Below the pieces are notes generated by a model, which made no database searches, was not told where the DNA came from, and was given only the letters and a program-made list of their open reading frames with translations. A stretch of DNA of 63,252 nucleotides, counting the filler, from Perkinsus chesapeaki ATCC PRA-425 (lineage: Eukaryota > Protista > Perkinsozoa), in the NCBI GenBank assembly GCA_013115145.1. It is 7 parts of 7 records of this genome, joined end to end, with 100 filler letters (N's around TTAATTAATTAA, not from the genome) between each part and the next. Parts side by side here need not be neighbours in the genome. Positions count along the whole stretch, not along the records: positions 1 to 31,245 come from JAAPAO010000423.1; positions 31,346 to 39,374 come from JAAPAO010000997.1; 5 more parts are not named here. One strand, 5' to 3'. Shown here piece after piece: positions 2,297-39,474 of this stretch; position 1 is the first letter of the stretch, and every line of letters begins with the position of its first letter. A program made the position numbers and the translations under genes.

Positions 2297-5200
2297 TCAC
2301 CTATCTCGTGGATTGTTAGTTTTCATTCTCAACTCCACCACGAAATATCTTCTCTCTTGATCGACATAAAGTGGAACTCCGATAGTATCAAGTTCTGATG
2401 AAATATATGCAATAGAAATCCTACAAAAGCTCTTACCGGGGTTCGAACCCTGGACCTTCGCGTCATGTTGTTCAGGAGTCCATTGAAGCGTAAGTGGCGG
2501 TACAGCCGAGAGAGGAGGGTCTTGTTGGTTTACATCCATCAATGTGAATGTAGACGGATCAATGCGGCACCCCTGAGATTAGAAGAGTTCTATCAGCACG
2601 CATGCGCAAGCCTAAGACAACCTCAAGATAAAGATTCTCAACAACTATTGCTGTGGCAGTGGTGGTGGATTTATCTGCTTCCCTTCCTTCTTCTTTTCTT
2701 GTAAAATAACTTTTCAATTTCAATGATGTATCCAGCGGGACCTGATGAAATACAGGACCGAGAACAAGACGTCGTTAGGGATCAGGTAATGATTAACGGA
2801 ATCTTGCAGTGACAAACAGGCTGTGTCTGAAGTACTCGTTGTTTACCTTTAACATTTTGGCAGTCTGTTGCTTTAAAGCATTGAGGAGTACTATTGGATT
2901 AATAACCTGTCCGAAGTCGAGGGGTTCATCGATGGGGAAGTCGGTATGAGTAATACGAGTCAACCACCGTGTACGTAGAGATACATAACGAGTGGAGAGA
3001 GCCTAACAATGTCGATCACGTGATCGATTTCGATAAAGATACTTTCAGGTATCTTAGCGGCTCATCGGGGGCAAACTCCCAATGGGAACTCCACATTGGA
3101 GGTACCTCTTGTTTTATGAGACTCTCGGCCACACCTAGAATGAGAAAGTTAGAGTCACTGCGCCACGAAATTCGGTACTGATTATCTCGGAGGTCAGTGG
3201 GGAGCGAGATGTCGTCGGATTTGCGCAAAATCCTCTGAGCGCTTTCAAATGTCGATCAACCTGAGTATCTTCAGGTCGACCATGCACGATGCAAAACAGG
3301 TTGCCCACTGTGTCATATATTTGTGTCACCATCAGAACATCCATTTTAACACAGGCGACTGTTGGCGAATCTGTTGGTTCGGCGACACTCAACGGAGTCG
3401 AGTCAGCTTTCTGATGCTCAACTGTCCGTGTCGACCAGAATGACCAGAGGACTTCCATCTCCTAAAGATCAAATATGCGAAGGAGAAGAGGCGAAATAAA
3501 CAAGTGATTGTTACGAAGCCCGGCAGAAGCAAGAGGAGACGGATAATGTCCAAGAAACGTCCCGAGTTAGGCTCTGTACTGATATTTATTATTATAACTA
3601 TGCCATATGATGGATAGGGCGTTATTCCATACCAGCCTGTCTTATCGATACGTTGTTGGACACAAGGGGGCAGTTAGAAATAAGTGAGAAATACTATAAC
3701 ATGCTGTGGAGTTTCATAGAGGAAAAACAATTCTTACTATTTTCCAAAGCTTTATATCAATGGACTGCTGCTGATGCTGTTGGTTGAAAGATGAGCTCCC
3801 AGGGTGGACCCAACTTGAGTTCAAGATACGTATCTGGCTCACAACCTAAAAGATACTTTTCGAGGTTGATTAATGACATCTTGAGCAGCTCACTCGCTGA
3901 CTATTTACTATTTGTAGATTCCTATCAGCGTTTGCTGCCATCCCCAAATCAATATGATCGGCACCAGACCGAGGCTCGTGAATGAGATGCGATTTGAATG
4001 TATCTGACAGACCCCAGTTCAAATCCCATGTACCTGACATTTCTTGGACTAACCCAGACTAGTAGAAGCTGGCAGATGGAAAGGTAGGAGGGAGGACCCA
4101 TTATCGATCGCCTGATCGATTAAAAATAGCGAATATACTGACATAGGAATCCTACCTGCTGCGCAAAGATACCTTTAACATATTGCCGTATTAACCTCAA
4201 ATCAAAATGGTTATCCACTCGGCATCCATAAATCGCATTCTCAAGAATTCCTCGAAGTGTTTGCCATTCCACTGGAATGAAAAGGTCCCGGGTTCTAATC
4301 CCAGAGCCGACATTTTACCGTTTTCCTTATTAATAACCTGTAGAGCCGACTCACAAGCACTTTTCAGATCAGCGGTAGAGAAGCCATAATCCTTCGACCA
4401 TCCCTGAAAGGCTTGAACATAAGGTTAGATAAAGTTACGATAGATCGCTTACCTGTGGGATGAAGGCACATCTCACTTGGATGATAGCGTGAAAGCAAGC
4501 ACACATGAATATAACCTAAAATGGATACTTTAACATACAATAGAGTTAAAAAATGGGATAATAATAATCAATAATAATAAACTGAGGGGATAAATACGAC
4601 GATTAACCGCTTGTTCATGCTAGCCGCATTATGTGAGTTTTATACTTGGTTGATGGATATGGACATCATTCATTAGAGGCTGCATTTTCGTGGCGCGTGA
4701 CAGAATGCACCTGCGATCTTCTAACTTCTCCTCCGGATCCGAACCACGCCCCATCCCAGTCCTCGCAGATCCTCATAATGTTATTCCTGATTCCTGGTGG
4801 AGATTCATACGCCACTTTTAAAGATGATTCCAGTAATGTTACGGGGAAGTTATCTCGAGGCTCAGTGGTAAGCCAACACCTGCAAGGATTTGGCACATGA
4901 GCTAATAAGGATAATGTGAGACCTGAAATCTTTGTGGACTTCCGCCGTGCTCTTCTCAAGTTGAGCTTCAATTTTGGCTGCCCATCCGAGCGCCAGATGA
5001 AGATTCATAATAAGCACCCAATGGCCTTCTTTAATGCCCTCTAATCGAAGCGCGACCCAGGTTCGAACCCGAGCACTGACATCATTTACTTTGCAAAGAT
5101 CCCAAAACTTCCTGCTCATTTCCTCCACCAATAGCCACTGCAACCAGGTTATGCCTGGAATAACTTCACGCGCCACGAAATATTCGGCAACTACCCCTTA

Positions 5201-8200
5201 GCAGCTGCATGTTGTGCAATCTCTTTAGTTGGATCTGCTCCCGGTGTGACTATGAATAATATTGGTCGAATGGTGTTACGGGATGAAGCAGCAACATCAT
5301 CAGATAAGAATGTAAGTGATGTATTGGAAGAGGATGCCGATGACACAGTTAAGGACTGAGAAAAGTCGCTACCCGGATTTGAACCGGGGTTGTCACGGCC
5401 ACAACGTGACGTCCTAACCACTAGACGATAGCGACTTAGTACCCACCTGAGTACCTCTGAGGAGAACTTAGCGAGTGCGGATTCAAGCCGATCGGGTCGC
5501 AATGCTTGGACGATGAGAACTTTCTGGAAGGACGTTAGTTTCAAGGCCACTGACTGTGGGAACTTCTCCTCGCATGCATCCTCCTATGAATATTCAACAT
5601 AACATACTTTCTATCTAACCAGCTTCGAGCTAAGATACTCACTTGCATCCACTCTTGCCACAAACTTGAGGTCTCCATTTCAGCCTTTTCATTCAATCCC
5701 GGCGATGCCGAAATTAAATTAATGAGATGATCTTTCCTATCTGTTGGGCACCAGACCCTATGTCCCTCCTTTAAAGTTTCCTTCACATCGTCACGCGCCA
5801 CGAAATTCCCCGTGAACAACCTCCACTCGTCCTCTGTAATCGATCTAGCTGCAAATGTTTTCGACATCAATATGGCAAACGTAAGTCTGATAGCAACTCG
5901 CTCATGAGTTTCGTGGCGCGTGAAGTTACCTGTCATGCTTGAATAGCGCCCTGTTGACATAGCCCAGAACATTGGCTTTCATTCTCATCATCATTTCACC
6001 CAGACGCGCTTCAATTTGATCTGACGGTTGCTCAACGGTTGTGTCTGAGAGTTCACATTTTTTAGGTGGGGAGGCGATGATGAACTTACCAATGAGTGAA
6101 TCTCGGAAGATGTGGATGAATTCGGTTAGAGAAAAACGATACATCGGCCTAGTATCCAGGCTTCAAGCATGCAAGATGCGCAGTAGGTTACCCAATCCTC
6201 GCCATATCCAACATAAGCATGAAGAGTTCCGCCCCTTCCACGGCGACAGCTCGGAACATCTAACAGCTTCGCAATCGAACGTTTCGACTCTCTATTTACA
6301 TTGCGTTGTTTATCAAGATCGTCTTGCAATCTTATGCTCTCTTGCAAACTCTCAACGATACTCAATGCACTCGTTTTAGTCTTTTCAAGACTTTCCATTA
6401 ATTTTTCATTCTCCAAAATGTTACCCTCAACAGCCGACAACTGCCGCAACAAATCTTCCTCAACTTCCATCAACCGATTCTGAGCAAGCCTCCAAATCGA
6501 TCATGTGATCGATTACAACCCACCTTGAGAGTATCTTCTTTCTCTATCAATTCCCCTCGTCTCTTTTCTAGCTCTGGCCGTTCATGACCAATAACAATTC
6601 CTACCAACTGTGATACCCATTGCATCCCTAACTACGCCCCACCTAGCAATTGGTGCATTAGTCCTTGCCGTGTTGCTGTGAAATTAACGCCAATAAGGAG
6701 ACTTCGCTCATTTGGCGCCATTGTCTCAAAAACTCCAGCATCCCGACTTGTAAGGAGAAGTCGAAAATCATCAGAATAATCGACGCTTCGCTCCGCCAGT
6801 TGAACGACTCTTCTTGACCCAATCAATTGGTAATCTTTTCTCAAGATAGGCAAGAGAACCGGTGAGATATTTCGATCGACGCCGAGATTAACCATAAGTG
6901 TTTTACCAAACCTCAGAGACAGTTCGAGTGTGTGCAGGAATGTCGAATCATTCTGATCAACGCACACCAATGATGTACCACTATCGGACAGGTGCCGGGC
7001 AAGCCATCCAAATGCCTTCTGAGTTGCATCGGCAATTAATGGCACTGCCGCCTAGCAGAGTGAGGTGTGCAATATTGGCAACGAATTTCGGTATACCTTT
7101 TCACTCTTGAGAACGACTAATGCATTTTCTGCTGAGAGTTCGTCTCCTCCAAGACCTTGGCTTTTGAACTTCATCAGCTCGGACTCTTTTCCGCTAAATT
7201 TCTTGAATGAGAATCCCTCCATTGTTATGGATTTAGTTGCAAGCTTTGAGCTCCAATCAGAAAGATACTCTGTACGAGCAATTTCCGAGAGTGCTCCGAG
7301 GTAAACCATAAATGCAGCAGCCAACATGCTTTCGACAGGCAGCCGATCTGAGGCATCAGATCTTGGGACGAGTTAGACTTGGGGTGCCCAGGTGAGTGAG
7401 AATAACAGTGAAATCATGTAATACGTATAAATGTAATGAGCCATAGAAGAATATATAAACGTTATGCTCACCTATCTTGCTGGATATTTCAGCTACCTCT
7501 TTCTCCCATCGCGTCTTCTCGTCCCCAAGACCTTCGAGAAGACCAACTGCCTTATTCAAAGTTCCACGTGCATGTTCGACCCCTTGACGGAGCCCCTCAG
7601 CCTCTCCTGAAATACGATACTTCATTGCATCAAACAAACTTCGATTGTGCTCGGAATTTGGGCTTGACGGTTAAACACGACACTCATTTTCCGGGATTGT
7701 TGGAACAGCTCGAGTTCTACAGAACATTTACCATAACAGGAACGAATTGTTGCTGAGCTCCACAGATGATTGTGGCCATAACGGCTCGGAAGGTTTGCGC
7801 AAGCTGATTAACGAATTTGTGCACACCTTCAGCGAACCTTCGCGTGTCCAGCTCATCGTCGCCTGTACCACCCAGGTTGTCAGATGGTGCGATGTCGCAT
7901 TAACTTCATTCACAAGAAGTCTTCTTGCGAATGGCCGACACCCGCGTCGCGGCGGTGCAAAACGGTGACATGTTAGAGCAACGCGTAGCAACCAATCGTT
8001 GAATTCCTTAAGTGAACGTAAGTTTTTTTGGGATCCACGGAGCTTTTACTCTTCATGGCTGGAGATTTTAAACTTCTTCTCAAGTAGCACGTCTTCGAAA
8101 GGTGAGCTTGTTGTTGAGGATGGGTCGGCCGTAGGCTATATCGCCAACTCAGGCGTTTCAGCCGGCCTACCATCCAGTGGTTACACCACATCCCCTCCCT

Positions 8201-11200
8201 TCCATGAAGCATCAATGATGCTTATTATCTTCAAGATAATATCTTGCGTCCATTTGCTTGTCAGCGTAAAAGTAGATTATGCTTAGTTCAACAACTGCGT
8301 CGTCTCCTTTTTAGCATTCAGGGAATGAAATCCACTTCCAATGTACTACATTGAATGTAGAGGAGACAAGATCGCAGCCTTTGCTTCATTCCTAGCCCGC
8401 CCCCGTCCAAGCTTTCAATGCTACAGCTACAATTGGTGGTGCTGCTGGCAGATGTTCACATCAGGGTAATTGTTGACGTTGTAGTTTCTGTTCCGATCCA
8501 ACAGAAACCCAGGTTTATGTTAACACTAGCTTAATATTACTGGTCACATCATGTGACTCACATGACTCGGATCAGCAGGCTCCAACTTGGCTCCCAACTT
8601 TAATAAGAGCCTGGCCAGGCCCAGCTCGACAAGCTGGAGGCCAGCTGGGAGTCCCAACTACACTATCAAGCAAAACTTGATCACAATCGGCCGCGGATTC
8701 CGCCGCGCGGAAGACCATTACCGATGATCCATGATCAATGATCCTGAGATATGACGACCACAAGTTGAGAAAAAGCTATAGAAATACCGATCAGAGAGAT
8801 AGACAAAGACAAAGCCGAAGAGGTTACATAGATAGTTTCCCCATGTCTAATACTCACCGGTTCGAACAGCAAACTCCTTTTGCATCTCTTTAACCTTTTC
8901 ACCAATCCTCTCTCGCTCAACCTCACATTCTCGCAGTCTCATCCGAGCTCCATGAAGATCATCTTCAGTCTGACGTAATTTACTTTCCATCGGAGCTACC
9001 TTTTCTATCACTCGAGAGTATCTATGCGCAATCGACACAAATGATCTACAACAAATCCTATAATCATAATAACTCACCTCACATTAGCCTTCACCCACAT
9101 CGCCAACGGTGCAGCGGCCAAGCTCGCCCGTCTAATAACCGAATCCTCAAACGATCGACCCTTCTCTTGCAATAACTTCTCAACATCCTCTCTGGCTTTC
9201 GAAGAAATCTTGCGCGCATCGAAATTCAGCACTCTTTGAATCACTCCCGCTCCGGATAGGAATTTCTTCATGGCATTCCAACTGTTATCAGATCCTCCCA
9301 TCAACAACAGCACGCCATACAGCACATCATGGATCGCCTCTGGTGGCATTTTCAGTGCCCGAATTTCGTTTAAATTATCTTGCCGAATCGATCCAACTGC
9401 CCGTCGTGCCTCATCGATGAGCGGTTGAATCTCAGCCAACTCATTTTCGATCCTCGCGTGCTCCTGCGTCGCCTCCAACTCATCTTTGCGAGTTCGTTCG
9501 CTAAGAATCTCAACTTCAGCTTTGTATTTTGCTGCCTCTTCCATTCCCACTTCGATGCTCTTCAAAGCGCCGCTCGCCAGTTTCTCCTTTTCCGATAATT
9601 CTTTTTCTTTCGCTCGCGCCTCGGTCGCTAATCGATCAACCGTTACATGCATTTCTCTCAGTTTTCCCAAACCCTTCTGCAAGCGTTCCCCTTCCAGTCT
9701 GACTCTGGTATGATGATCCCCATACCCAATCCTCCACAACTTGAGCAAGGTCAGAAGATATCTTTGACTACATTTCGAGCTCTCATGGATATCCACAGTC
9801 GCTTCGCATAGCTCTTTATGATAGCTTACAGTTGTCTTCTCTCCATCACTGGCAAGGAGCTCCTTTAATCCCCTTGAAGTGATGATTAAAGATGACCTGA
9901 TAAATGAAGGTTTTTCTTATTTCTGGGACTTCTACTATCTACTAACTAGCAGTATGATGGCTAGTATTATTTAGTCCGTCAATTATGCCTAGTGACCCGG
10001 CAAGTCACTTTTATTTCACTAAACTAGTACGCATGATGGTGATAAACAGTTACATTTATCGAGCTGAGCCAACCGTAAACTATCCATCTCCGTTGGGCAA
10101 TTAATCAGCCTATCTGCTTTTGAGTAGGTTATGAGTTATTCATAATAATCAGGAAATAAAAAATCTTCAATATTCTCCTCCTCCCTTCTTACTTCCTACT
10201 CCAACTTGTCCAGTTCCATAAGACTGTAGTATTAGTGAACAATGCAGGGTTCGTCGATGTTATCTCATAATAATGCGGATGATCAGGGTTCAACGATAAA
10301 ACGAAAGCCAAGTTATCTTTCACGCGCCTCAAAAAGTATTCCTCGAGGCTTTCAGCTGGCATCGACTCTTGCTGATGTTGATCCTTGATTTGTCCCAAAA
10401 TCAATTCCTTCTCCTCTGCTTGAATTAATCCTCCCACATCTCCCGAAGCGACGAGGCTGTTCAAAACAGCAAAGAATTCCTCAGCAGATCCCCGCAGATG
10501 ATGGTCCTCGACAAAAACAATTATTTTTTCCCGCTCCGCTCCGCCTGCTGCTGCTTTAATAACTGCCGCTTTTATTTCTTTCAAATTTATTTTTCCTTCC
10601 ATCGCCGTTAATGTCGGCGTTATAATTTCGTATTGGTGCATATGAGCCATCAAAGCCAAACTGCTCCTCCTGCCGCAACCAGATCGACCAACCATCAGCA
10701 CGCATGCGCAGCCGCCCTGTCCGACACGAACGCCGAGAGCTCGATCAAGGCATGCTAAATTCTCCAGCACCTACTACGACTTGAGCAATCGAATAAAAAC
10801 CGCGCGCCACAAAACTAACCTCATCCACAATAGAAATTCCTAACGGCTTGATGTCTCTTTCATACTCTGCCAATCCAGAAGTTATCAATTGGCGATAATC
10901 AGACTTTGGAATTCGCTCAAGTCGGTCAAGTCGATGACCTGATGACCACTAATCAGATGAGCCGGTGTAAGAAATGATTATCAAAGAAAGAATACAAAAA
11001 GATACGAAAGTTATTGACCACGAATTCTGGTGGACGAAAATTCGACAAACGCATTTCGCTAAATCGGAGAATTTCTAAGTACTTAACACTTGTGTTAACA
11101 TAATAATTTTTCATTCGACCGTTCATCTCACCATTATTCTTCTTTCTCCTTCCTAATGCCATCAAACCACTCCATTTAGCTGCTTCTTTATAATCTGCTA

Positions 11201-14200
11201 TTTCCCCGAACCTCGCCTCTGCCACGCCACGAAGTATCATATCAAACTTAGCGCGGTGCTGACCACCAACCAAACGGTCTCTAAAAATCCTTCTACCTTC
11301 GTAACTGAATACCAACAATACCAATCCATAAGCACGTTAAATATGCCAAATCCCACTGAGGTGGCTCATCTAGAAGCCCATGATGACCTGTCGCTTACAA
11401 CACCTATGTAGTAACCAAAAGCTCCTCGAAATTGCCCTTCTCATTATCGATGAAAAACAACAGCTCCCCGAATGGCCGCATATTCGTTGAAGTCGTTTGT
11501 CTATGGTCCCTCAGACCATCATATAAACACATTTCGAGCACTTCAAAACGTTCCAGTATTTTCTATCAGTGATATGATGATGAGAGACCGAATAACAAGA
11601 ATATATCTCAAGTCCAAAATGATGCTATTAGCCCCTCCTCCTGCTGCTATTGGGGGTTACCTACCCCCAGGCCTCGATGAGTGTCGTATCATCTGCTCCT
11701 GCTCCTGCTGTGGTGGTGGTATTATATAATAATAACTGCTGTAACCAATTGCTTATATCGCGGGGGGTGAATACGTAATGAGAGTATCTAATAAATGGGG
11801 ACAATCGCCGACTAACAACTGGAGGAGGAGGAGATAACTAAATTGCATCAATCTGTTTCTAATCTCAACTTTTCTCGCATTTTCCTTATCCTTGCTGCCT
11901 AAAGTAGCACCACCATTTCTCCGACCAATACCGAGCTGCTCCCAAAGGGCGGCAATACTTGCAATATTATTACTTCGTTCTTCTTCCCCATCTTACGTTT
12001 CTGGTCCAAAGTGTTGAGCTATTTGGTAATAAACATCAACCATTCCTTCAACTGCTGACTGCATAGCTTTTGACTCGTTACCGATGATGATAGTTGAATA
12101 AATACATTCCAACTCATTGCGATCTGGAGGAGATATCCAAGCTTGACAGATGCCCGAGGTGAACCTGAACCAACAACACACCGTCACTGCGCCACGAAAA
12201 TCCACATATTTCCGCCCAGCCGTACAAAAATGTAGTTCAATCTCTTTCTGTGGTGGTATTTCACTCGACAAGTGATTTCCGTGGCAAAGTCGAACCGAAA
12301 GGAAATTAAAAAATTTAACAGTTGAACTTCACAGTAGCTCGAGACTACACCGTATAAATTGAATTATGGAACGGTGGCTTGCGAATCAATTAGGTCAAGA
12401 GCTGATTGAAAATGTGATGCAGAGGAAAGAAATTTTAGGAAAAGTTCAAATACGCTTTCAATCCAAAGGAGCGTCGTCTTCGATGAGAAAATATGTCCCA
12501 AAACCGATCGTCGGATCAGAACTTACCGTTTTGAGATGACATGTCGTCCAAGTGATGATGATGGTGCAACAGACGATATAAATTGGATACTCTCCAAGGT
12601 AGCCGTCTCCAAATCATAATCATTAAAACTCTGATAACAAAGATACACGGGCTGGGATTCGAACCCGCGACCTACGCCATAAGAGACCATCTCCTGTAAC
12701 GCCGCCACGATTTGAGTTGTTCCATATTTATCTGGTTTGGTAAGATTAACGTCATCGATCATCAACACAGTTCGTTGGCCCGATCTCGGTCTGTAAGTCC
12801 TCCCTTTTGGACCTTCAAAAATGACAAGTCCACAAATGATGGAGGTTCAATTCAACAATGTCGCTTGTCTACTACTTCATATCATTGTTAACAATCTATA
12901 TAATAGTTTATAAGCAATAATAATACAGCCCGAAAAACTTTTAATGATATCATCATCTATTATATTACCTACTTGTTATAACAATTATACTATCTAGGTA
13001 ATTTATGAGACATTTTCATTTTCCACCTTCTGCAAAAAAGTGCAAAGGATTCTACCTTTTCCATCTTGAGACGATTATTTTTGAAAATTCACCTTCCCTC
13101 CAACGCCCCCACCAATCTCAAATTTTTTCTCAAGCCAACTAGTTCAAATAATGACCACCATCTCTGGTAACACTATCGGTGTTTGAGGAACAGCGAGCCG
13201 TCGGCGGCGGGGGCGATCGATGATGGATCCTTACCAGCTCCAATGTGGCAAATACTCCCCAATTTAATTGCAACATCAGCACCCTTGCTTTGACCGTTAC
13301 ACGATAAAGTTGCCCAACGAGCTGCTGCTCCGTTAATGTGAGCTGCTGATGAGATTTCAGGGCAACATTTTAATAAGTCACCTGTTAGTTCACTTTTAAT
13401 AAATAAACGTTTGCCCGATCCTTCCGGGCCACAGATGATGAAGTGATAACCTAAAGGATTACAATAGGAGGTCAAAGGAGCCATTGTCATTCACGAAGGT
13501 GCGTGGCGGAGAAGGCAGGAAAATTCTATTATTTTTCTGAAATTTTCCCGACTGTGGATGAATCTAAGTGTACTCGGATGGAGACAGGTTCGATAGTATA
13601 TAATGGGTAGTAAAATATCGCTTGTATTTCATAACTCACCTTTTCTAAGCCATCCACTAAATAAATCAATCATAGTTGCCACATGCCGGGTTCGAACCAG
13701 GGTCGTCGTCGTCGTTGTCACATCTCCACTATAGGTTACTTCTTCGCTGTACCTGTGAAATCTATAAATAAAAGTATCTTTCAGACTTCTTATCACCTCA
13801 CCAAACCGCCAATGTCATCACAAAACGTGCAATTACGAGGATTGCCCTCATCTGGTAATACCTCCTTGCCACATTTGAAGACGAATCTAAAGACAACAAC
13901 AGAAGCAGCTGCAGCTAGAGGTGTCAGAAAACAACTAACAAACATCGCAATCGTCGGTAATTTAATTCGATACTAACGAAGCGAACACATTCATTGAAAT
14001 GATAATATTGAGAATGTCCTTATTTATCCCAACCAATCTCACCTATATAATTGTTGTGCCAGACTATCATTGGATATGCAACCACCAAGACCACGTGCAA
14101 CCGCCACCAAGAACTTTCCCTGAAAACAACATCATAATAGCCTACTAGTAGAGCGAGTAACCGATGCATTCTTCAATCCAAAGGGCGTGAGTTCTATCCC

Positions 14201-25264: not shown

Positions 25265-25594
25265 ACGAGATACTCGGAAAACCAAGCTACAAAGTATCTT
25301 ACCTGCGTCAACCTGGGATACTTTCACAATAATCCCATGATTTTTAAGAACCCAACTCATCTCATTATCACATTACTATGCGATTACATTGGAAATAAAT
25401 CGCTAGATCGAACAACTAAGAATACCATACACCTGATTAGTATCTTGCAAGGTTCAAGCTAAGATAGTAATTAACTATAAACACAAGGCAACGATAATTA
25501 GCTGAAATTAACCTAGATCAGTCTCGGAAACACTCCAAAGATTTCGCAAACCTCCATCGCCGCTGCTGCCGATGATGATGATCGTTTAGCCGAT

Positions 25595-26825: not shown

Positions 26826-29483
26826 AATTAATAAAAATGTGAAGCTGAAGAAATGATGAGAGATCATAGGTCAAGAAGATCGCATTGAACATTCATCATA
26901 CACTTCAATGATCTGATGAGATTGCCTTCGATCATCTGATGGCCAGGCTCATCGGAGACGTCGCATCACTCAAGGATGAACCACCAAAATTAACGTTGTC
27001 ACAGATGTGCGCGCGTACATATGATATATGCGCACGCCCTGCCGATCGATTAGTTATTGTGTCTCGCTTTTGCTGTATCTAAGGTTGAAGCATGCAAGAT
27101 ACTAGGGAGGTTGAGAATGATTCACTGAAGTCCGTGTATTATCTTAGACTGACTTTCGGGTTAAATGCGTTGGGGCAAGAGTGGGCGCGGAATGGTATAT
27201 TAGGTCAGCGAATGGCGCAGCGCAAGATACGCGATATATCACCGTATATCACTAACTTCTTAGCTTGCCGCGTGCAAGATACCCGGCAGGTTGGTCCGTC
27301 TACCATGTCCTCCCGTCCACGTCAACTGATATCCACCGAAGAATACCTTGGTAAGACCCTTTCCTCCTCTGACTTGCATTTCTTTTTAGATTTCTTCGAC
27401 ACCACCGATACCGAGACCACCTCGGATTCTCCTACAATCCATATCCAATCTCGAACATTGAAATCTTCCGACCAATTGAAGTAACACTTTACCTCTATAG
27501 TGCTCATCTACAATCCCTTTTGATTGTATAGTAATGTCATCCAATCGTAAGTTGAACAAAGAGGTTATCGTAATTTATCATCAGTACAGTGTAGTTTATG
27601 ATAAAATATTGTTTTTCACTCACCGACAGAGACTCATTCGAAAGCATTTTATATCGGCTTTATGGTTGTCAAACCGAAAACATCAAACAGACTATTCAAC
27701 CTACTAAACTGATGACAAGTTGTCAAGTTTAGGTTGGATGAAGCTGATTGCAGATTGGCAGTTGAGAGGGTCCTCGAAGCGGTGAGAAGGTTTAGTAATT
27801 TCGTGGCGAGTGACGATTAAGATACTTTGGATATGTCTGCAGCTTCACAGGAGTGGTCAAACTCAAGGGTCAGCTCGTTTGTTGAAGATTATCAACGTAG
27901 CGCAATCTGCTGGGGATTATGGATCCATCATAGAGGCCTATGTCCGACATGTTTTGTATCATGCATGCTCCAACCTACGATACCATTCATAGGCTGGCCC
28001 GTATGAGCTGCTAAACACCCTTTCAAAGGAGATGCCTTTGCTTTTCCAAGCCATTCATTTTCAATTTAACTTTAACGATCCAACTTGGCGACATAAGTTA
28101 AAGTAATCCTACCTCGGATCGAACCTGGGCCATTCGATTGCTATTTCAGTCGCGCCCTTGAAGCCAGAGAGGCTGTTTTGGAATTCGGCCTTCAGCCAGC
28201 GGGATATTCGGGTAGGTATAGGAGATATGTCGTGAAGTATGATATATCATTACACCCTTACATTTTAGATGTCCCAACAGCACCTATCAGGAACAATTCA
28301 CGAAGACGACCGGAAACTGCCAGATATCGAACGAATCAGAACACAGAAGTGAGGGGGGGGGGGGGTTGGGTGACAAATATTAAGATTATTGATCCTCTCA
28401 GCTGCACCATCATCGGTGTTATAGATTTCGTCGTCCAACTAGTGCCCCTCTTTCAAAGGCTTATCCAACAACAGAATCACGTTATCCATGACTCCTCCTC
28501 CTCCTTGACTTAGTGTTGGTTAATATAAGGGAACGGTCTATTGCGATGTTTTATCAGGTTGCGGTCTCCGAAGCCGTAGACCTTGTTAGATTTTTACAGT
28601 GCGATTCCTTACTGTAGCATTTCACAGCCCCCCCGCGCTGGCTTGACACTTTAAGAGTAGATACCATGAAAAAATGTTAATATTTAATCGATTTGGCTTG
28701 TCGTTCTAATAACGTTACTCCAGTAATATTACTATTAAATGGTCCAAGTTAACTTTACTGAAGAGGTTGAACTAGAACGAGTTCATGTAAGATGGTTGAT
28801 TCGGAAGTTGGACGGGATACCGCTCATGCTACCTTGTATCAGAATCTCAGCCCACATAATCGACAAGAATACTTGGAACGAGTCTTCGCCAAATTTGATA
28901 CTGTAAGCTTGTGGTATCATAGGTTGAAGCGTGCAAGATACGCAGTACCTTGAGAACCAACACTTTATCAGGACGGTAGTGGAGAGATCGAGTATCCGGA
29001 GCTTCTTGCTGCCATGCGATTTCTTGGCATTCAAACAAGCTCCTTCATTGTTAAGAAGTTGTTCTCGGATATGGATCAGGTAGATGTTCCATGCCGGAAT
29101 CGAACCCGATATCTTTCGATTGCTAGGATAAGTCGGGTACAATCGACGTTGAAGAGTTTATAGAATTCTTCTTCAAAGTTAAGAAGTTGGATGATCTAAA
29201 AGAAGAGCTCAGCCATAGGAGGAAGCAATATATATTTCGTCATAGGATATTAAACATGTAATGAAAATGCCTCGCCCCCGCCTCCTCCTCCCCCGCCTAA
29301 GACAACTCTTCCAAATTGGCCCAATCTGAGCCCCTCTATCGAGGGGCCCAATTCCCCTTCATATGTTATCAGGAAACGGCTTAGAATTGCTACTATTTCT
29401 TGTCGGGGAGCACTAATTAAAGGGCTTCACGACTACTTGAACAGTTTATTCTCCGACCCACATCGGTCGTCGTATCGATTGTT

Positions 29484-29825
29484 GTGGATCAATTTAGTGC
29501 CCCTCTTTTGGGACCTTCTCTTGTCAGGTATATTTTGGTATTATTTTTTACAGTATTCATTCTGGTTATTATTTACTTATCGGATGTAGCAACATCTGGT
29601 GATTCAGCCATAGAAGGAACACAAGCAACGTACTTCAATAATTTCATGGCGCGTGACGATTCATACACCACCTACAGGTCATCCTCCTCCTCCTCGTCCT
29701 CACAAGTGACCAGCAAATCCTCCTCTACTTCTCCTGTTGTCGTAGCCATATTTGCCCTCAGTGGCATTTTGCTCATCACCATCGCCTACGTGGTCATTGG
29801 CCCTATCATAATGCTCAAGTATTAA
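29484..29825 (+). CDS. Small membrane protein with Ser-rich linker, intron-containing
   Basis: Two hydrophobic segments and a poly-Ser run; GT-AG intron 29630-29677 carries motif A. Confidence 0.3.
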   Translation: MDQFSAPLLGPSLVRYILVLFFTVFILVIIYLSDVATSGDSAIEGTQATYFNNFMARDDSYTTYRSSSSSSSSQVTSKSSSTSPVVVAIFALSGILLITIAYVVIGPIIMLKY

Positions 29826-30755
29826 CAGAAATCTACCTTTCTTTCGTGAATCAATTTTCGAAGGTACAAACGAAAGCAAGACGAGAAGAATGGCAAGACA
29901 CAGTATCTAAACAGGCAGCGGTCCATAGGTGGGCAATTCCACCTTTATTTCGGGCATGTCCCGTTTGTTGATATTATCTTTAAGCAGCAGATTCACGCTA
30001 CCCTAGCTACTTTGACAGAGCTAACTCATGGCAAGTAAAAGGGTTTGATGGTGGGAATGATGATAGTAAGTTTAATGCCAGCACACGAGTTCGATCCCTG
30101 GATGGGGCATTTAGTGTCAGCGGGAGGAGGACGATTATCAAGATTGAAGAGTCAGGAAAGCATACGAGGAAGTGACAAGGTTATAATAAAAGGGAATCTT
30201 TTTTGGACGGGAAATTTCGGAAAATTCCACGAATTGTCTTTGTTGTTTTTTTTAAATTCTGCATGCCGCCAATGGTCGGTGAGGGTGGTCCAGATATGGG
30301 ATGATTTCACCGAGATATTACTTCTCTGTGGATCAGTGGATACGTGTGGAGTTTGAAGTCGTAGGGAGTACTTATGACGTGGATGTCGTCGCGCGCCACA
30401 AAATGAGTTTTTATGTTTTCTTCAGTTACGGAGGTCATTTATCAGGCAAGCATCTCAGGTGTCATTGGCAGGAAATAATGTTTTGCCTCAACTTGAAATT
30501 CAACGTAATCTTATTGGCCGAAAATAAATCAATTATACAACCTTTAGCGTTTACCGGATTTTACCACAATAAGCAAGAAGATGAGGATAAGGCCTTTGTT
30601 GGTCCAACTAGGTGTTTTAACCCACTCAATACTAAAAAATATGCATGGCAACCTCCTGTGTAGTCCTGTTGATCGCCACTCTTGTTTTGAGTTACAGTTG
30701 TCATCAATCCGATCTATTTTGAATCTTGCACGCGTGAACCTGAGATATTTTTCCT

Positions 30756-31070
30756 ATGACTCGCCATCAAAATTCCTTATCAGCCGAAAGCAGCAAATAT
30801 GAACGCACCGCGAAGCTGATTGTAAACTTCGTTGGTCGATTGCCTCGATCGTATTGGCAGGGTGTTGATCTACGAGAAGAATCCCACTTCCATTGGATAG
30901 TTGAATTGGCTGCACATTGTGGATTACCACCGGAATGGAAGGAATTTGTGGAAGAAGGTTCGGGGCAAATCGCCTATTATCATCCGAGGTTGAAAGTAGT
31001 ATTGCTGATGATGATGGGGGCGGAGTTGAATCTTTGGAGATCATCATCAACTGGCTGTGTCGGTTATTAG
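30756..31070 (+). CDS. WW-domain protein with CEP164-like N-terminal region (partial)
   Basis: GVDLREESHFHWIVELAAHCGLPPEWKEFVEEGSGQIAYYHP resembles the helix + LP..W...YY WW module of CEP164-type proteins. Confidence 0.5.
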   Translation: MTRHQNSLSAESSKYERTAKLIVNFVGRLPRSYWQGVDLREESHFHWIVELAAHCGLPPEWKEFVEEGSGQIAYYHPRLKVVLLMMMGAELNLWRSSSTGCVGY

Positions 31071-31245
31071 TTATTACAGAAGACGCATCCTATGTTGACC
31101 AGATTTGAGGAACTTGTTAAAAAACAAAGAGAATTTATTCGAAGAAATAATAGGTATTTAAATTGATAAGATTGATGCGTCGCACTGCGCATAAATTGTG
31201 CAATATCTTTGGGCGAGCGATACTTGAAGAGATATCTAATGCATG

Positions 31246-31345
31246 NNNNNNNNNNNNNNNNNNNNNNNNNNNNNNNNNNNNNNNNNNNNTTAATTAATTA
31301 ANNNNNNNNNNNNNNNNNNNNNNNNNNNNNNNNNNNNNNNNNNNN
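31246..31345. other. Artificial contig linker (N44-TTAATTAATTAA-N44)
   Basis: Identical 100-bp linker also at 39375-39474, 46006-46105, 58696-58795, 60832-60931 and 62078-62177. Confidence 0.98.
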
Positions 31346-34300
31346 CGGCGAAGTGGATCTTCCCGTTTCAGATTCGTGCGCTCAAATTCGCCCGTCGAGA
31401 CGAAATTGATGTTCCTAAGTGCGAACTTGACGTTGAAAAGGTGTACTTAGCTGGGCCCACTGAGAGCCCAAGAGAAGGTATTTAAGACATGGAGTCACTC
31501 AAATGACCCCTTTTTTTCTATGAATCACGGCAAGTCGTGTTCGTATAGTAAGTAATCTATCCTAGATTTGAAACATGTGGAAACGGTCCCATCAAAAGAC
31601 GACATTGACAACCAATGATTGGTTTTCGTACCCAAATTGAATGCGGCTAGTATAATGCTCTCATAGGTTGCTACATCTGACTCAGATGGCTCAGATAATC
31701 TGAGCCTCCTTAGTTGGCTTCGCATTGTCCGCCTACAGGCTGCTGAATTCTTGAATTTTCCACGACCTATCTAGTCGAAGCGCCATCCACACCCGATATG
31801 GTATCCACTCTGAGCCTGGTAATCGGTGGACACTGTCTACTAGGAAGGCTCATCATTCATGAAGCTCACAACGAGTGCACGCTGTTCATCAAATGGTGGT
31901 CTTCTAAAGATACCAGCGGCTTCATACTACCCTTATACAGATCTCAACAGACAAGAAGTCAGAAAAAAATATGATAAAATTGCTTGCTTGAGAAAACTAA
32001 ACGACATGGGAAGCCGAGGAATGCGAGCAGCCGACATCTCCCGGGGAAAGTCTACGACGTTACCTTGAGAGGAAAATCTTTCCTATCATAATTTCCATTG
32101 TATCTCCTCCGCGTTAGGAACACTTTTCGATCCTCATTGAACGTATGACATGTGTCGCATGTCTGTGGCACAGACTCTGTGTGGGTTGATAATATATTAT
32201 AAAGGTTTTGGTCGAAGTAAGTGGGCGCTCTTATATTGATAAATGGTTAGTAGGCAAAAGGTGGTAAGTACATGCTCGTCGGGGTAGAGTGAAGAGGAAT
32301 AAAGGTTAGAGTAGGGCGTCAGAGATTGGTTGCACTTGAGCAAGGGGTGATGATAATCACCATTACGGGTCAACTACCGTTAAACACCTCTCAAACTTTG
32401 GGGCCCCCCATTATCATACCAAAAGTCTCTCAAGAGAAGCCTTCTTGAATCTTTTCAGGGCGAACCGGCCGGATTTTGCTCGAAGGTCCTAGTGGGACGT
32501 GAGTAGTACTCACGAACCTCAAGAAGGATTCTCCAACCCGATTGCTTCTTAGGTCGAGGACGACCTCCTCTTCAAAGACGGCTCGATAAAAGATGCCCAA
32601 TGTACACGTTAAAGTCATTCAACGATCGATTCAACCGTTTTTCCTTCTCACAACGTCTAAGCAGCTTTATGGGCTTCCAGGGTTTGTCATTTGTGTGGTC
32701 ACGAAGGGTCGCGCCCTGACCCTAGCTCCGCAGATGTCAGAGTGAAATGTAGCTGAAGCTTGCAGGAATCTAACTTGAGCAACTTGGCTTAATATTCATG
32801 CTGAGTCAGTTTCCTTATGGCACATTTGGTTCAAGGATGACGAGGCGCAGGTTCAAATCCTAGGGGAGGCATGTGGTCTTTGTGCCAGGTAACGTTCAAT
32901 AAGGCTTTTCGAGGAATACAAAGGGCTATATTTCGGGTATGCCGCTTAATCTTATGCTTGCTCTACATTCCTATAACCTTAAGAAGCGGTTCTTATGATA
33001 GATCATTCTAAAAGGCCCCGAATTACGATAGACACGCGCACATTTATCTTGAACTCTTCAGAAATCTTGCACTCTCTCCATGCGGGCTCGCGAAAAGCGC
33101 ATTTGAAAATTTGTCGATCGAAATATTTCCTTCGCTTGTTTTCTGCCCTTTTCCGTTCTTTCGCAACATCCTCCTTACCGGGCGACACAAAGCGGTGCTC
33201 TACCGGTGTCTCCTAATCTGCAAAGAAGTCCCAGATCGAAAAGCGAACTTTAGAAGGAAGATTTTCTGGAAATTTATCGAAGTTCCGGTTGATCTTCCAG
33301 CGCTGGGTAGAAATGAATTCGCCATTTGAGGAAGGGGGACAAGTCATTGTGTGCTTAGATAGTTTATAGAGATGTCGCGTCAATGCCATCGCCGTCCGAC
33401 ACGGCACGCAGCCGTAGAGGCCCGTAGGCGATTAAGGATAACTTCAGCTGGACGTGGCACAAAAGCACAGTTGAAAAGGGCAGCCCCGGCGAATCAGAGG
33501 CGTAGAAGCTCCTCGAGGTCTGCAATGAAGAAGACACCACCGATGAAATCTACACAGTGCGAAGATACTTTGGCAAAAAGCGGGCGAAAAAAGTTTTGGT
33601 GTGAGGACGAGGAGATTGGGGAACTATCGAGACACTCGAGGCCCGGCAGGAAAATTTTATGGGAAAAAATACCAGGCTGCTCTGTGCAGGTGGGAAAATT
33701 TTCAGGGGAAAAATATCTTTCTGTCAGCTTGATTTTTCCGGGAAAAAAGTTGATTTGAAGGAGCATTCGGGCCGAGAGTTGGAGAGGGGCGAAAGGCAGA
33801 TTTACTTGGTAAGGAAGGATTTACTGTAATCCATCGGATGAGCGGCTGGGTGCAGGTTAACGAAGTCGTATTTGATATTCGTAACTGCTTGGGGGCCCAG
33901 TTGTTCGAAGAGAGCTTTCCTGAATGCAAACTGAAGGAAGTCGGGGAGCGCGGAAGATACTCGGGATCATCTCTCAACTGTGCAACACTCTGTGTAGGGG
34001 GGAGGGGCATACTTTGGTGTTGATGATGAAGATCACTGAGGGGAGATTAGCGATGCTTATAGGGTGCTCGTATGTGGAATTCACAACCCCAGCCAACGCA
34101 CGATTTTGTTGTATCTCTCCGCATGGGCCCATTTATGCCTCATCATGTGTTCTATCCCCACACTAACATTTCGGCATTTCCCGGAGAATGCATTTTCCCT
34201 TCAATACGGTTGTTCGGTCTGGTCGGAGAGTAGTTCCTTCTTTGCTCGAGTATGAGAGGGTATCGCAGGACTCGAGACTCGGATATTGATATTTCACCAA

Positions 34301-35271
34301 ACCTACAATAGAGCCATTGTTGTCGACAGGACTTGATCACATTCATAGCTGGTCTAGAAGTCTCGTAGGGTTGAGACTGTTAAAATGCATGACAGCGGCT
34401 TGCCTGTATGAAACGGTTAAGGTAGAAGTGAAACTAGAAGCAAGTAGTAATATAGAGTATAATAATTATCATACAAAAGCGTGCCCAGCTTAATCAACCG
34501 GCGGCCCATATACGTTAAAGGGTATATTCTCCACACCTTTAATATGTAAAGGGGTAATCCTTGATTAAAGGTGTTGATTGTCTGATTAGGGGAGGGTCAA
34601 ATTGGCAAAGTTGAGAAGCTGGATGAATGCTAGCTGGCTTTAGGCTGTAGTTTACAGTATGAACTGCGTACTGTCTGTAGATTTGTTCGATTTTCTTGCG
34701 AGTGAAGTAGAGGTGTATTATTGATTACTGGTATTGTAAAACGATTTTCCCGTTCGTTTATATACATTACGTTGAATCGTATCATAATAATATTGGCATT
34801 TCATAATCCAACTTAATCAAAAACATTTTCGAAGATGTGTAATTTGCAATGATTTATTGTAGATACTGTGCAGCGATTCCTCCGTAGAGCCGTGCGCTTC
34901 TATCTCCTCCTCCTCCCCCCCTCCACGCGATGCCCCTACAGTACTGGCATCATGCCTGTATCGATATGACTCGGTGAGTCGAGATGCTATGGTATTACTC
35001 TTTACAACAGCTAAGAGTGTTTTATATCCTGCCCCTAGAGGTAAGAAGAGAGGCGAGGGTTCGAATCCTTGCAGGGGCATTTTTAATAACTGGTAAAATA
35101 AAATTCGTCGACCATTTCTATGTGGGGTATCGTGTGCGACATTCAACTGTTTGCGAATATTGACTTGAATATTTGAAAAAATTGGCTAATTGAAAAGAAT
35201 ACGAAATTAATTTTATTATAAATTATATTAATAAAACTTATTAAGATAGCATAGGTATCATCTACCTGAGT

Positions 35272-35699
35272 CACTACACCATTTCAAGATCTTATTAGTA
35301 AAAGCCCAGACCAATTTCGTGATGAGAGTGGATGGAGGCTCAATTCACCATCAGATATCTATTCTGCGGTGAATGCTTGATACGCCTCATCTGTCATCGT
35401 TTGCCTCAGTCAATTCTCATCACTTCCCACGTGATGACGGAGGTTAGTAACCTACGTCATCACCTCGGTAACCTCATCTTACCCCGTCAAAGGCAATAGG
35501 TTGATCACAATTCATGACTCACAATCGGCGGAGTTCTTCGGACCAAATGGGTTGCGGCCTGCAACCCATTTACCGTACGTGATGCACATGTGCGTGAAAT
35601 GGTATAGGTGGCTCCATCGACATCATGGTTGCTAAATCGATCTGGGCTATATCAACTTGTTCTGGGCTTTTACTAATTAGATCTCGAAATGGTGTAGTA
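35272..35699. mobile_element. ~430-bp MITE with ~40-bp imperfect TIRs, CACTA-like ends
   Basis: Left CACTACACCATTTCAAGATCTTATTAGTAAAAGCCCAGA; the right end reverse-complements to TACTACACCATTTCGAGATCTAATTAGTAAAAGCCCAGA. No ORF. Confidence 0.7.
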
Positions 35700-36747
35700 A
35701 GGAAAATAGAATTCATATAAAATCTTTATTGCAAAAGTTAACTCTAATAATTAGTATTATGCCTATCCTTCAGGTAGGGCAGGTTACACGCTTGATTGTA
35801 GAGGACGTGGATTGGGACGAGTGTTGGATTATAATTTATGCGAATGGCTTATGAAGTATAAAGAATGCCGGTCTGCATACGTTGAGATGTTAAATCAGCA
35901 GGTCGCTCACTTCTGGACAAAGATCGGGTAAGAAGGCGGAGCGAAGCGATTTTTCTTTTGCATTTTTGCGCTGTAGCTACGTACCATTAATCAGCCGTCA
36001 CGACTCGAACCAGACCTTCCGCGGCTTCCACGGCACAGTTTTGGCGCGCAAGATGTTATGGTATTGAGGTTGAGCGCTTGACTGTTGCTGCTGCTGCCGT
36101 GGAGTTATATTGCGAAGGTCGCGAGTTCGATCCCTGGCGGCGGCACTTTTTTATTGCAGGAGCATATTTGATTCACTTAAAACCCTTCAAAAGGGCTCTT
36201 CGTTAACTACGCATTTAAGCCGATATGGGCGTCGCGTTGGTAGGGGAAATCTTGCTAATCTTGCATTTCCTTAATGCGAATAGCTCTCGTCTGCTTCTTC
36301 TCCAACGCCATTGTTTTGGTGCTGGTTTTTTTGGTCGCATTGGGTACAGCAGGGAAAGCACCGAAGGGGAGGAATCCTGAGCTGGGTAAGGCGTGGGTTC
36401 GAATCCTGGTGAGGGCATTTCAATGCAGATAGTGACGATGAACGTGTTGCGATGATACGGAAATACGAAGGACCGTGGAGTCGGATAAAAGAGCAATACC
36501 ATTTGTTTGTTAAGTAAGCAAGGAGCGGTATGAATCGCTGGAGTAGGAGCGTTCGGACTTTGCTGATTAATCATCCTGATTTATCGGTATAAGTTTTGAT
36601 AGTTAACTTTCAATGAGTTCCTTGTCACGGCGTGTTTGGAGATAGAAGGAATGTACACGGGGAACAGATATCTTCACTTTATAATTCCAGAGTACCCGTG
36701 TCAACCACTTTCGCCTGTGTCCGCTTGTCGCGAGCTCTGCAGGTGAG

Positions 36748-37070
36748 GGAAATATATACAGTACCTATTCATACAGTATTATATAAGTACTGTACTTAAA
36801 GTACAGTACTTAATGGAATACAGGAAATATATACAGTACCTATTTATACAGTATTATATAAGTACTGTACTANNNNNNNNNNNNNNNNNNNNNNNNNNNN
36901 NNNNNNNNNNNNNNNNNNNNNNNNNNNNNNNNNNNNNNNNNNNNNNNNNNNNNNNNNNNNNNNNNNNNNNGTACCTATTTATACAGTATTATATAAGTAC
37001 TGTACTTAAAGTACAGTACTTAATGGAATACAGGAAATATATACGGTACCTATTTATACAGTATTATAAA
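36748..37070. repeat. 75-bp AT-rich tandem repeat with internal palindrome, interrupted by an N gap
   Basis: GGAAATATATACAGTACC recurs at 36748 and 36823 and after the gap. Confidence 0.9.
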
Positions 37071-39474
37071 CATATATTTATATACCTGCCATCTGAAGAC
37101 TGTATTCTGTATATGCTCCTTCATTACCGATATCTGCCCCCTTCCAGCTGTGCATTATTAATGATTACGTAAATGCTATAATAACAATTGTTATCGATAT
37201 AATCACCACTAATGCTAACGCTATTCGCACTCCTCAACAGTCGTGTTGGGAGGCGGAGTCGGGTGTTTTGGGGCTAACAAGAGCCTCATCCCCAGAAACC
37301 AACCATTTGAGATTATTGAACCTGGCGTAACTTTTGATGGTATGGCATCCTGTTCTGTTGTCATGTCTGTCATTTGTTGTCCGCCATATGCCCTTATCAA
37401 TCCCTCCTGCTCTTCCTGCTTTTGCCCAATTGGGAGAGGCGCATTTGTTTCTGTTCCTTTTTAACTTTTATAAGGAATTCCTGCAGTGATAGGTTGATTG
37501 TATAAAGCTCATGGCCGTATGTATTATTATTAATGTTTTCCTCCTCCTCCTCCTCCTTCTGCTTCAGATTGCTTGACATTGCTATACCAGTGATGGCTAT
37601 GGTATTTGGTATATGCTTTTTTATTGAAATGAACATTATGATAGATGCCAAAGAGCATGGAGGAGTTGGCTCGATGGCTCAAGTTGCGTAAGTTGGGTAT
37701 GCATGGCTGCCCCGTTTTGTGTCGGAGTATGAAACGGTTGATCGATTTGGTCTTATAGGCCGTTAACTTTTACGAGTGTTATCTGATCAAGCTGCATATA
37801 ATATTTTTTATAAGGAAAATGATATTATTAATCTACCATTGTGTAATATTATTATTTGATCAATTTATTTATTAGTTGCATGCCGATATTGAGCCATAAA
37901 TTGAAATGATATATTCGCTTGGATCGCGGTTTCGACTCTGGGAGCATATTTCCTATTGCTCAGCGCGATCTACTATTGAGATACACAATACTGTTGTCCC
38001 CATTACCACACAAATACTGCTGTCTCCACACGAATTTCACGTTTCTGTTAATTCACATATCACCTTAGGATGTGTCTCGGACACATTGTATGCTTGTATC
38101 TTCTTACTCTATACGGAACTTTCCAGTGTATCTCCTCGGCAATAGGAGGACTTACTCCCCTCTGCTTTACCTGCCCCACCTCAATTTTGGCAGATATGTA
38201 CCTGTATCATCAATTGACAATATCCTACTGGCAAAGAAGGCGGCCGAGGCCTCCTGGGTGCCGCCCAAGACGGTCAGTGTCGAGATCGAGCTTCCGCTCA
38301 AGCAGATTACCTTCCAACCCGACCTGGTAACAACCGGCAACGAAAATGGAAAAGATGAAACGCTTCGCTCCGCTGTAGATATCTCGTGAGCCTGCAGCGT
38401 CACAGTCAGTAATTTTATCTCCAGGAGGGAAACAACGCGTTGCCCTCGACGTGCCGACGACGACCGGCGGGAAAATCCAACTTCTACTGGACCACTCCGC
38501 ACTCGCCAGCATCATCAGGAACAAGTCATAGAGTTTGTGAAAAGCGCGCGCCCGGTTGATCGATTTGGTATCAGGTACAGTCGGAAGGAAGCGGAGATTA
38601 CGCTTGATTTGGGTACGCTATTGGCGCTGAATACTTCCGGTGCGATTATACCAGGGGAAGGCGAAGGCGGAGCGATGCAGAAATTTGAGTGGCCGCTGGG
38701 AGGCAAAGTATGGAAAATGATGACAGGCGGATAGGGAAGAAAAAGGGATTAAAATGCCGGTGGTGGGAATCGAACTTGAGTGAGGCGAAGGCCGTGACTG
38801 TGACAGTTATATGATTGACGTATATAATACATTCTCTTGCGAATGTTTGCGTGCGTTGTTAATCTGGGCGGAAATTCCCCTAATTTTCCGGTGGTATCAT
38901 TTTGGGGATTTTCGCTGATTTTACTTCTTTCCAATTTTTCCCCATTTTTCAGACAATGTGATTTTCCGTACTTTCAGCTTTCCCCTGATTTTTCCAACTT
39001 CCCATGGGTTGTGGAGCTTCTTCCTCCGCCAAGACACAGGATACCCCTGCCGTCCCTGCCACTGAGGTATATGGAAAACTGCAAACATGAATCGCTTCGC
39101 TCCGCTCACCTTGCTGGATTTTCAGGAGCCTAAGGTTGAGGGAGAGAATGCTCCGGTTGTCGCCGAAAATGGTGGTGAGAATGATAAATTCGATGCGTTT
39201 GATATTTCATAATTTTCAGATAACGGTGCGAAGGAGGGTATGCGGGCATCGGTCTCTAACTACGTCCAGGGCTTAGCTAGCGCTTTGGTTGCGGGGGAGG
39301 GAGTGATGAGATTTGATGAGAAAGCTAGTTGTTCTCTAGGAGACTGCTGCACGCGACACGGAGCGCCGTGACGCNNNNNNNNNNNNNNNNNNNNNNNNNN
39401 NNNNNNNNNNNNNNNNNNTTAATTAATTAANNNNNNNNNNNNNNNNNNNNNNNNNNNNNNNNNNNNNNNNNNNN

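Follow-up and report, generated by a model that had tools for sequence, protein, structure and literature searches.

The dynein-2 locus and its introns

Analysis of 63,252 nucleotides (nt) of DNA from the shellfish parasite Perkinsus chesapeaki ATCC PRA-425 (assembly GCA_013115145.1), a window made of seven parts joined end to end, revealed that a few unrelated short words recur along a dynein-2 heavy chain gene and its surroundings, in tiny introns as well as in coding exons, and that some of them appear to be maintained at the DNA level. By protein homology, the gene is carried on the minus strand of contig 1 (positions 1-31245); its open frame was traced over 2298..23762 (4097 amino acids) and is annotated in P. 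chesapeaki as P0240. This annotated protein of 4326 amino acids aligns to contig 1 gap-free across 4326 residues, and its P. marinus orthologue, P0232, shows 63% identity over 2974 aligned residues.

Introns were delimited with a purpose-written spliced aligner and three motif-blind profiles, drawn from the annotation, from the P. marinus protein and from 28 dyneins (one of them a P. marinus-cluster fragment); an intron was accepted where at least two of the three agreed, and seven were added by hand. The resulting working set comprises 70 dynein-2 introns, three of them upstream of 2298..23762, where the 5' end of the gene, up to about 24800, is uncertain. Forty-three of the 70 are no longer than 60 nt, 38 of which have homology support beyond the annotation, and the P. 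marinus proteins contained no translated retained introns at intron positions. Introns are common in Perkinsus and mostly shorter than 100 bp, according to the available part of the source (PMC3101222). The dynein introns rest on protein homology, RNA contigs having been compared with 23400-31245 only. The RNA runs contained a small share of the stretch, and within that interval their contigs left the dynein part uncovered, which does not imply silence. RNA support for motif-bearing introns is confined to two on the plus strand: a 40-nt intron with an A copy (27782..27821), whose 3' end is RNA-backed and whose 5' end is inferred from a gap in the RNA contig, and an RNA-backed 51-nt intron with a reverse C copy (27942..27992). 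The longest dynein intron (7607-8857, 1251 nt) is word-free and forms part of the largest gap between words.

Families of repeated words

Word profiles, trained with the dynein exons and intact tRNAs masked and thresholded at 0.25 chance matches per family per 39 kb of order-4 Markov sequence, identified 62 copies of five families in positions 2428-39106: A (17), B (17, two being intact tRNA genes), C (14), E (7) and F (7). This upholds the original prediction that five motif families recur about 60 times here. Two additional families in the same interval, G and C2, have four copies each (eight together). A scan with fixed consensus sequences and no fitting over 1-39374 recovered 12 copies of A (up to 3 mismatches), 11 of C (up to 7), 6 of E (up to 4) and 6 of F (up to 1), where 20 Markov simulations averaged 0.00-0.05, and all 59 non-exonic copies passed leave-one-out scoring. 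The words are 14-28 bp long, with invariant cores and variable centres.

Family A, CGTCAC(T)GCGCCACGAAATT, whose TGGCGCG core we take to resemble an E2F site, extends over 3153..30405, with copies starting in dynein introns (3153, 4684, 5164, 5907, 12182, 15112, 19193, 19778 and 24619), in dynein exons (5789, 10318, which is weak, 18283 and 20168) and in other genes (25118, 27797, 29640 and 30387). Family C, a 28-bp word with 7-bp inverted ends (GTATCTTAGGTTGAAGCRTGCAAGATAC), extends over 3265..30748, with starts at 3265, 5611, 6152, 20012, 20293 (weak, in an exon), 20451, 21120, 25294, 25440, 27075, 27255, 27956, 28914 and 30721. The palindrome of family E, ATCGATCRCGTGATCGAT, which has a variable centre, is found over 3010..33847 (starts 3010, 4102 across an acceptor, 6495, 18134 in an exon, 19223, 21264 and, weakly, 33828). 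Family F, CGCTTCGCTCCGCT, extends over 6784..39106, in dynein exons (6784, 10532 and 17877), in a dynein intron (17164) and at 35935, 38361 and 39093, with a further copy at 51017. The 15 non-intact copies of family B, which correspond to tRNA 3' ends, occupy 2438..36407 in the profile scan, starting at 2438, 4008, 4283, 5058, 12654, 13687, 14182, 16041, 20958, 29095, 30080, 32842, 35050, 36116 and 36388. Finally, family G, GCGCGCCC..TTRATCGATT, which has an E half-site, lies within 23430..38566 (23430, 24974, 27027 and 38541, with a partial copy at 23606), and family C2, AATCTTGCATTTCCTCAACGC, within 14361..36277 on the plus strand (14361, 24401, 33063 and 36257); the C2 copies at 14361 and 24401 are 97% alike over 31 nt.

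The divergent intergene 27000-27300 holds a cluster of words as well. Contigs 3-7 (39475-63252), where by eye some stretches resemble intron-bearing genes, are nearly word-free, with two matches in 23.8 kb. DNA run X2, possibly the source of this DNA, showed no insertion or deletion relative to 23400-31245; 107 of its 138 aligned contigs match only in part, and its depth at bins containing words is 48-407, versus about 30-40 elsewhere. These partial fits and raised depths thus suggest that the words are multicopy across the genome. Words also occur in pairs: E with A, and half a C with E or G, within the stretch; X2 contigs from other loci contain G+C, C2+C, C2+A and C+A joints whose sides measure 20-28 nt. 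A pattern scan of metagenome and viral contigs for C gave no match; the A pattern gave 118 single-match loci, four of which had one second match (55-69% GC), taken as chance.

Placement of the words in the dynein-2 gene

Among the 44 copies in dynein-2, 23 lie in introns of at most 60 nt, ten in longer introns and 11 in exons. A word is present in 23 of the 43 short introns (11.6 copies per kb) and in nine of the 27 long ones (1.4 per kb), and the exonic copies amount to 0.9 per kb; the excess in short introns over long introns is 8.5-fold per base (p = 4e-9). Where present, the words fill 37-69% of a short intron. It had been predicted that most placed copies sit in introns of 40-60 nt and fill 30-70% of them, with a few embedded in exons: the filling and the concentration in tiny introns are borne out, but the exonic copies are more than a few, making up a quarter of those in the gene. 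Family F in particular is mostly exonic (three of four dynein copies). Of the 43 short introns, 20 hold no word that reaches the threshold, and several of these contain partial words. The 72-nt intron at 19180..19251 (minus strand), delimited by spliced alignment and profile matches, contains both E and A, as predicted. Outside dynein, 21 of 26 copies are bracketed by GT..AG, versus 45% at random, in what is a weak test.

The asymmetric families occur in both orientations, also as predicted, with sense/antisense counts in dynein of 7/4 for B, 4/3 for C, 3/10 for A and 1/3 for F. The centres of the 43 short introns (2298-24700) are weakly phased near 145-150 bp; a 149-bp period fits the 14 long gaps that separate short introns (p = 0.044, with p = 0.0007-0.027 in jitter tests). 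Exon lengths in dynein fall into groups of 90-140, about 400 and about 820 nt, and the phase of the exonic words is weak (0.09-0.23).

Exonic copies and conservation of the underlying residues in P. marinus

The spliced dynein frame contains 11 word matches, compared with 1.14 after synonymous shuffling and 0.42 after codon shuffling (300 shuffles each); for matches of at least 20 bits the numbers are 8, 0.24 and 0.01, respectively. Given the encoded peptide, the probability of the codons used is 6e-5 to 5e-3 per exonic site. At the strong exonic copies of A, E and F the protein lines up colinearly with other dyneins, so these copies are not insertions. Five of the six shared exonic sites are gap-free, the A copy at 5789 lying under a gap column opened by other dyneins.

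This A copy (5789..5807, plus strand), which scores highest, corresponds to NFVARDD (NFVARDG in P. marinus). The peptides are identical in P. marinus at the exonic F copies 6784..6797 (plus; LAERSV, where other dyneins mostly have I/V/L-G-D-K) and 17877..17890 (plus; SGAKL), at the E copy 18134..18153 (ISITRSI) and at the A copy 20168..20187 (plus; ELCGAVT); in the A copy 18283..18302 (plus; EILGRSDD), the R is also present in P. marinus, and seven other dyneins compared have Q. Overall, P. marinus has the same residue at 40 of the 44 scorable positions of the seven A, E and F sites that reach 20 bits, against 24.9 expected from columns of like outgroup conservation. Compared with matched windows, the six gap-free sites have 37 versus 22.1 identical residues (p = 2e-6), and the flanks of the exonic sites are ordinary (0.60 versus 0.64 expected). 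The count leaves out the B copy at 2438, located beyond the end of P0232 with an ambiguous exon edge, and three matches below 20 bits (A 10318, B 13687 and C 20293).

All seven permissive peptides of the P. chesapeaki protein are realised as words, versus 0 of 120 for decoy profiles (60 sets of column-shuffled profiles). Likewise, six P. marinus peptides are able to spell A, E or F, and all six are real words in P. chesapeaki DNA, versus 0 of 122 for decoys. Peptides permissive for A and E number four in each Perkinsus protein and seven in total over 25 other dyneins. Moreover, an E copy (4102..4121) crosses the 3' splice site at 4112, intact in DNA and split in mRNA; this copy and two partial C copies that span splice sites are whole only in DNA or pre-mRNA.

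Through the proxy of protein sequence, a position-specific constraint between species was thus found for exonic A, E and F. Since the peptides predate the species split and synonymous drift would erase the words, their persistence points to upkeep at the DNA level; similarly, peptides kept in common with a species whose protein differs by 37%, combined with optimal synonymous letters, imply that the words are held by a reader of the DNA sequence. The words of A, E and F, which this support covers, therefore look old and actively maintained.

Family B and tRNA genes

ARAGORN and Rfam call three tRNAs only, all within dynein introns and on the minus strand, which is also that of the gene: an intact tRNA-His (5363..5436), a tRNA-Pro(CGG) with a weak Rfam score of 30.3 bits (16488..16559) and an intact tRNA-Pro(AGG) (23239..23310); Rfam gave nothing else above its gathering score. 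By eye, a 91-nt intron also appears to hold a full-length decayed tRNA gene at 14150-14215. Outside whole tRNA genes, the B box GGTTCGANTCC is found in 15 copies. They represent tRNA 3' ends, with a variable loop, the B box, a 7-nt acceptor strand and often a T tract, and have A at position 73 in 12 of the 15 rows as printed (one row is off by a base). All terminate where the 3' end of a tRNA would be, and their T stems and acceptor strands vary; one to four of five T-stem pairs are formed, versus five of five in the three tRNA genes. A tRNA-derived short interspersed element was rejected as the nature of B, no shared body being found behind the tRNA head. In the simplest origin for B, dispersed tRNA genes would have decayed while retaining the B box; the three intronic tRNA genes and the apparently decayed one possibly represent a source series. 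In yeast, TFIIIC binds B boxes outside tRNA genes, according to the accessible part of PMC3395662, and by analogy the B copies are likely candidate TFIIIC-binding sites.

Proposed interpretation of the words as protein-binding sites

The favoured explanation, to which we assign a probability of about 55%, is that the words are binding sites of sequence-specific DNA-binding proteins, selected along gene bodies and hosted in tiny introns, with a role in chromatin or transcription. Such sites would cost least in tiny introns; a site would guard its host intron against loss as deletion trimmed the remainder to about 45 nt, and where an exon is long the site would be written into codons. The role could be local control of chromatin or transcription, perhaps in nucleosome linkers, as the weak 150-bp phasing might suggest, and some words may initially have spread by copying, from tRNA genes in the case of B and from a micro-repeat in that of C2. 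In the available portions of the respective sources, P. marinus is reported to have nucleosomes (PMC6313786) and AP2 domains (PMC4117751). A bolder form, which we consider doubtful, would be a gene-body chromatin code in Perkinsus, a sister of the dinoflagellates that has nucleosomes, in which a small lexicon of putative protein-bound words marks a subset of genes lengthwise, using linker-sized introns as purpose-kept carriers and overriding codon and amino-acid choice where introns are missing.

The proposal of protein-binding sites at the DNA level was part of the original prediction and gains from the colinear exonic copies, near-optimal codons and focal P. marinus conservation of A, E and F; an even spacing of the words along the gene was rejected, as they are no more regular than random (coefficient of variation 1.20 versus 0.97, with a largest gap of 3.5 kb). 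Several further observations weigh against this reading. The period of motif centres is not significant (p = 0.17), and counted per intron the difference between short and long introns is not significant either (p = 0.14). Family A is skewed in strand, all four of its exonic copies being antisense. Residue-by-residue conservation is lacking at A 10318 and B 13687, EILGRSDD alone does no better than matched windows (6 versus 6.3), and F-permissive peptides are frequent in other dyneins (0-10 per protein). The cross-species test is limited to the protein sequence of a single gene in a single other species, and the selection argument extends by analogy to B, C, G and C2, which lack a conserved exonic copy.

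Alternative explanations

Among the rivals, molecular drive without benefit survives best, although we regard it as rather unlikely. A protein or a repair bias would favour the word-bearing allele, through break protection or biased conversion, and words would accumulate wherever tolerated, acting at the DNA level but with no regulatory job. Drive of this kind has been proposed for bacterial uptake sequences. It accounts for both orientations, for exonic copies at outgroup-variable residues and for irregular spacing, and fits the exonic data equally well; in the accessible text of PMC2817400, bacterial uptake sequences similarly favour poorly conserved residues and reshape peptides. However, three or more drives would have to have arisen independently, each with a long word unrelated to the others, and drive alone leaves the 8.5-fold tiny-intron excess and the near absence of words from contigs 3-7 unexplained.

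Alternatively, the words may be remnants, now in decay, of elements that gave rise to the tiny introns, whether micro-transposons, tRNA-derived repeats or old introners, an account that seems unlikely for the words as a whole. The strong enrichment in tiny introns agrees with it, as do the inverted ends of C and the splice sites that C provides in some introns (donor 21147, acceptors 3846 and 21358), the tRNA derivation of B and its overlap with the donor at 12675. The near-identity of two C2 copies and the loose ends of 14-15 X2 contigs, which pile up at 24384 and 24421, fit a relic as well, and C2 may be a young repeat. The phasing of short introns near 149 bp is a further point in its favour, introners favouring nucleosome linkers in the available text of PMC9860276. 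As defined in that text, introners require likeness up to both splice boundaries. Here, the local score of likeness outside the word is 3.97 in 43 same-family pairs versus 3.87 in 210 other pairs, and the offset of the word from the donor varies from 0 to 34 nt. No target-site duplication beyond chance was found, 54 copies fitting the random distribution, and repeats at intron ends are at chance level (2.1 versus 2.3 nt). Family C begins at the donor in one of six dynein introns, and A and F have no inverted ends. With likeness confined to the word, variable offsets and no duplication, the words are therefore not introners, and the intron-generating micro-elements first offered as an alternative fail in this form. 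The colinear, conserved exonic copies also speak against relics, and Supplementary Table 4 of PMC9860276 gives an introner score of 0 to each of P. olseni, P. marinus and P. chesapeaki. Since B is tRNA-derived and C2 possibly a young repeat, the families need not share one origin, and the relic account is likely to fit the origin of B and C2 and not the upkeep of A, E and F.

Templated copy-and-patch repair, which would paste short pieces of abundant sequences into breaks, make introns and convert near-matches, is improbable: the mixed word pairs seen here and in X2 contigs from elsewhere agree with it, but fixed lengths, invariant cores with variable centres and exon sites common to P. marinus indicate position-specific constraint. 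Least probable of all are RNA-level splicing signals or intronic small RNAs, in line with the tiny-intron concentration, the strand skew of A and the overlap of C with cis- and trans-splice acceptors, yet at odds with the occurrence of A, B, C and F in both orientations, with the call of three tRNAs only by Rfam and with the lack of compensatory pairs in the arms of C, which speaks against hairpin selection on that family.

Comparison with known systems

The closest likeness to DNA uptake sequences of Haemophilus, Actinobacillus and Neisseria (PMC2817400, accessible text) lies in short, fixed, multicopy words that also occur in coding DNA and shape peptides at variable residues; the Perkinsus words, too, are over-represented in coding DNA and shape peptides, in one gene. 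Uptake sequences, however, are bacterial, comprise a single word per species and are tied to uptake, whereas the words of this eukaryote form five or more unrelated families and are concentrated in tiny introns. Family B recalls the extra-TFIIIC (ETC) sites of yeast in placing a B box outside a working tRNA gene. ETC sites have a conserved 3' extension; in that place the B copies mostly have A at position 73 and often a T tract, with an acceptor strand that varies. In the part of PMC3395662 available, ETC sites number eight in budding yeast, mostly in divergent intergenes, whereas 15 B copies occur within 39 kb, mostly in introns, with tRNA 3'-end geometry and TFIIIC binding only predicted. 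The likeness to ETC sites is limited to this family.

Transcription-factor sites in codons are known as duons. The E2F/AP2 motifs of Cryptosporidium (PMC4117751, accessible portion) are likewise orientation-free words with invariant cores. In contrast to both, the words described here are longer (14-28 bp), belong to several families and recur about every 500 bp through a 22-kb gene body. Introners have reportedly been described in Amoebophrya. As in introners (PMC9860276, available text), short introns of unrelated genes share sequence, with possible linker phasing and some elements supplying a splice site; unlike introners, these introns resemble one another only in an internal word whose offset varies, they show no duplication, and the words are also kept within codons.

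The literature searched gave no account of these words and no cis-regulatory DNA code of Perkinsus; subscription-journal Perkinsus genome papers and bioRxiv supplements were outside its reach and may bear on novelty. What is new here is the exon test, the nearest known kinds being binding sites in introns or codons and ETC sites. Perkinsus stands just before the dinoflagellate loss of normal chromatin, and words kept even in codons offer exact baits for candidate binding proteins. They also suggest a testable reason for the persistence of tiny introns, which would carry DNA-level sites, and illustrate that origin is separable from upkeep, in that repeats failing introner tests are nonetheless under constraint.

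Neighbouring transcripts and minor features

The public model P0240 fuses the MAM33 gene (25535-26825) with dynein-2, and RNA revealed a separate, spliced MAM33 transcript. The MAM33 exon matches Perkinsus olseni proteins at 95-97%, and RNA contigs confirm three MAM33 introns. Four MAM33 introns (26144-26752) are word-free, whereas the neighbouring gene and dynein carry words; the words may thus mark a subset of genes. Over 25891-26474, RNA runs X6 and X8 each contain a second MAM33 transcript with 29 differences per 250 nt and the same intron positions, which would represent a divergent allele, a paralogue or a second genotype.

In RNA run X7, loose 5' ends of 19-21 nt were found at 27262, 27288 and 25667; we take them to match a dinoflagellate-type spliced leader, and they are possibly primer-derived. 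A separate leader-capped transcript begins at 25667 on the minus strand and overlaps the last MAM33 exon. One gene uses two acceptors 26 nt apart (27262 and 27288), the first of which lies inside a C word (27255..27282, plus strand) that, judging from the loose RNA ends and the presumed leader, crosses a trans-splice acceptor (AG at 27262-27263) in the 5' region.

Runs of GAAATTTC-like units make up 60683-60830 and, by eye, likewise 14940-15000, 19420-19500 and 24530, and two tiny-to-medium introns consist almost entirely of such units. Finally, a 15-bp tandem array at 816-1025, within a frame of 196 amino acids, encodes G/E/K-rich repeats.

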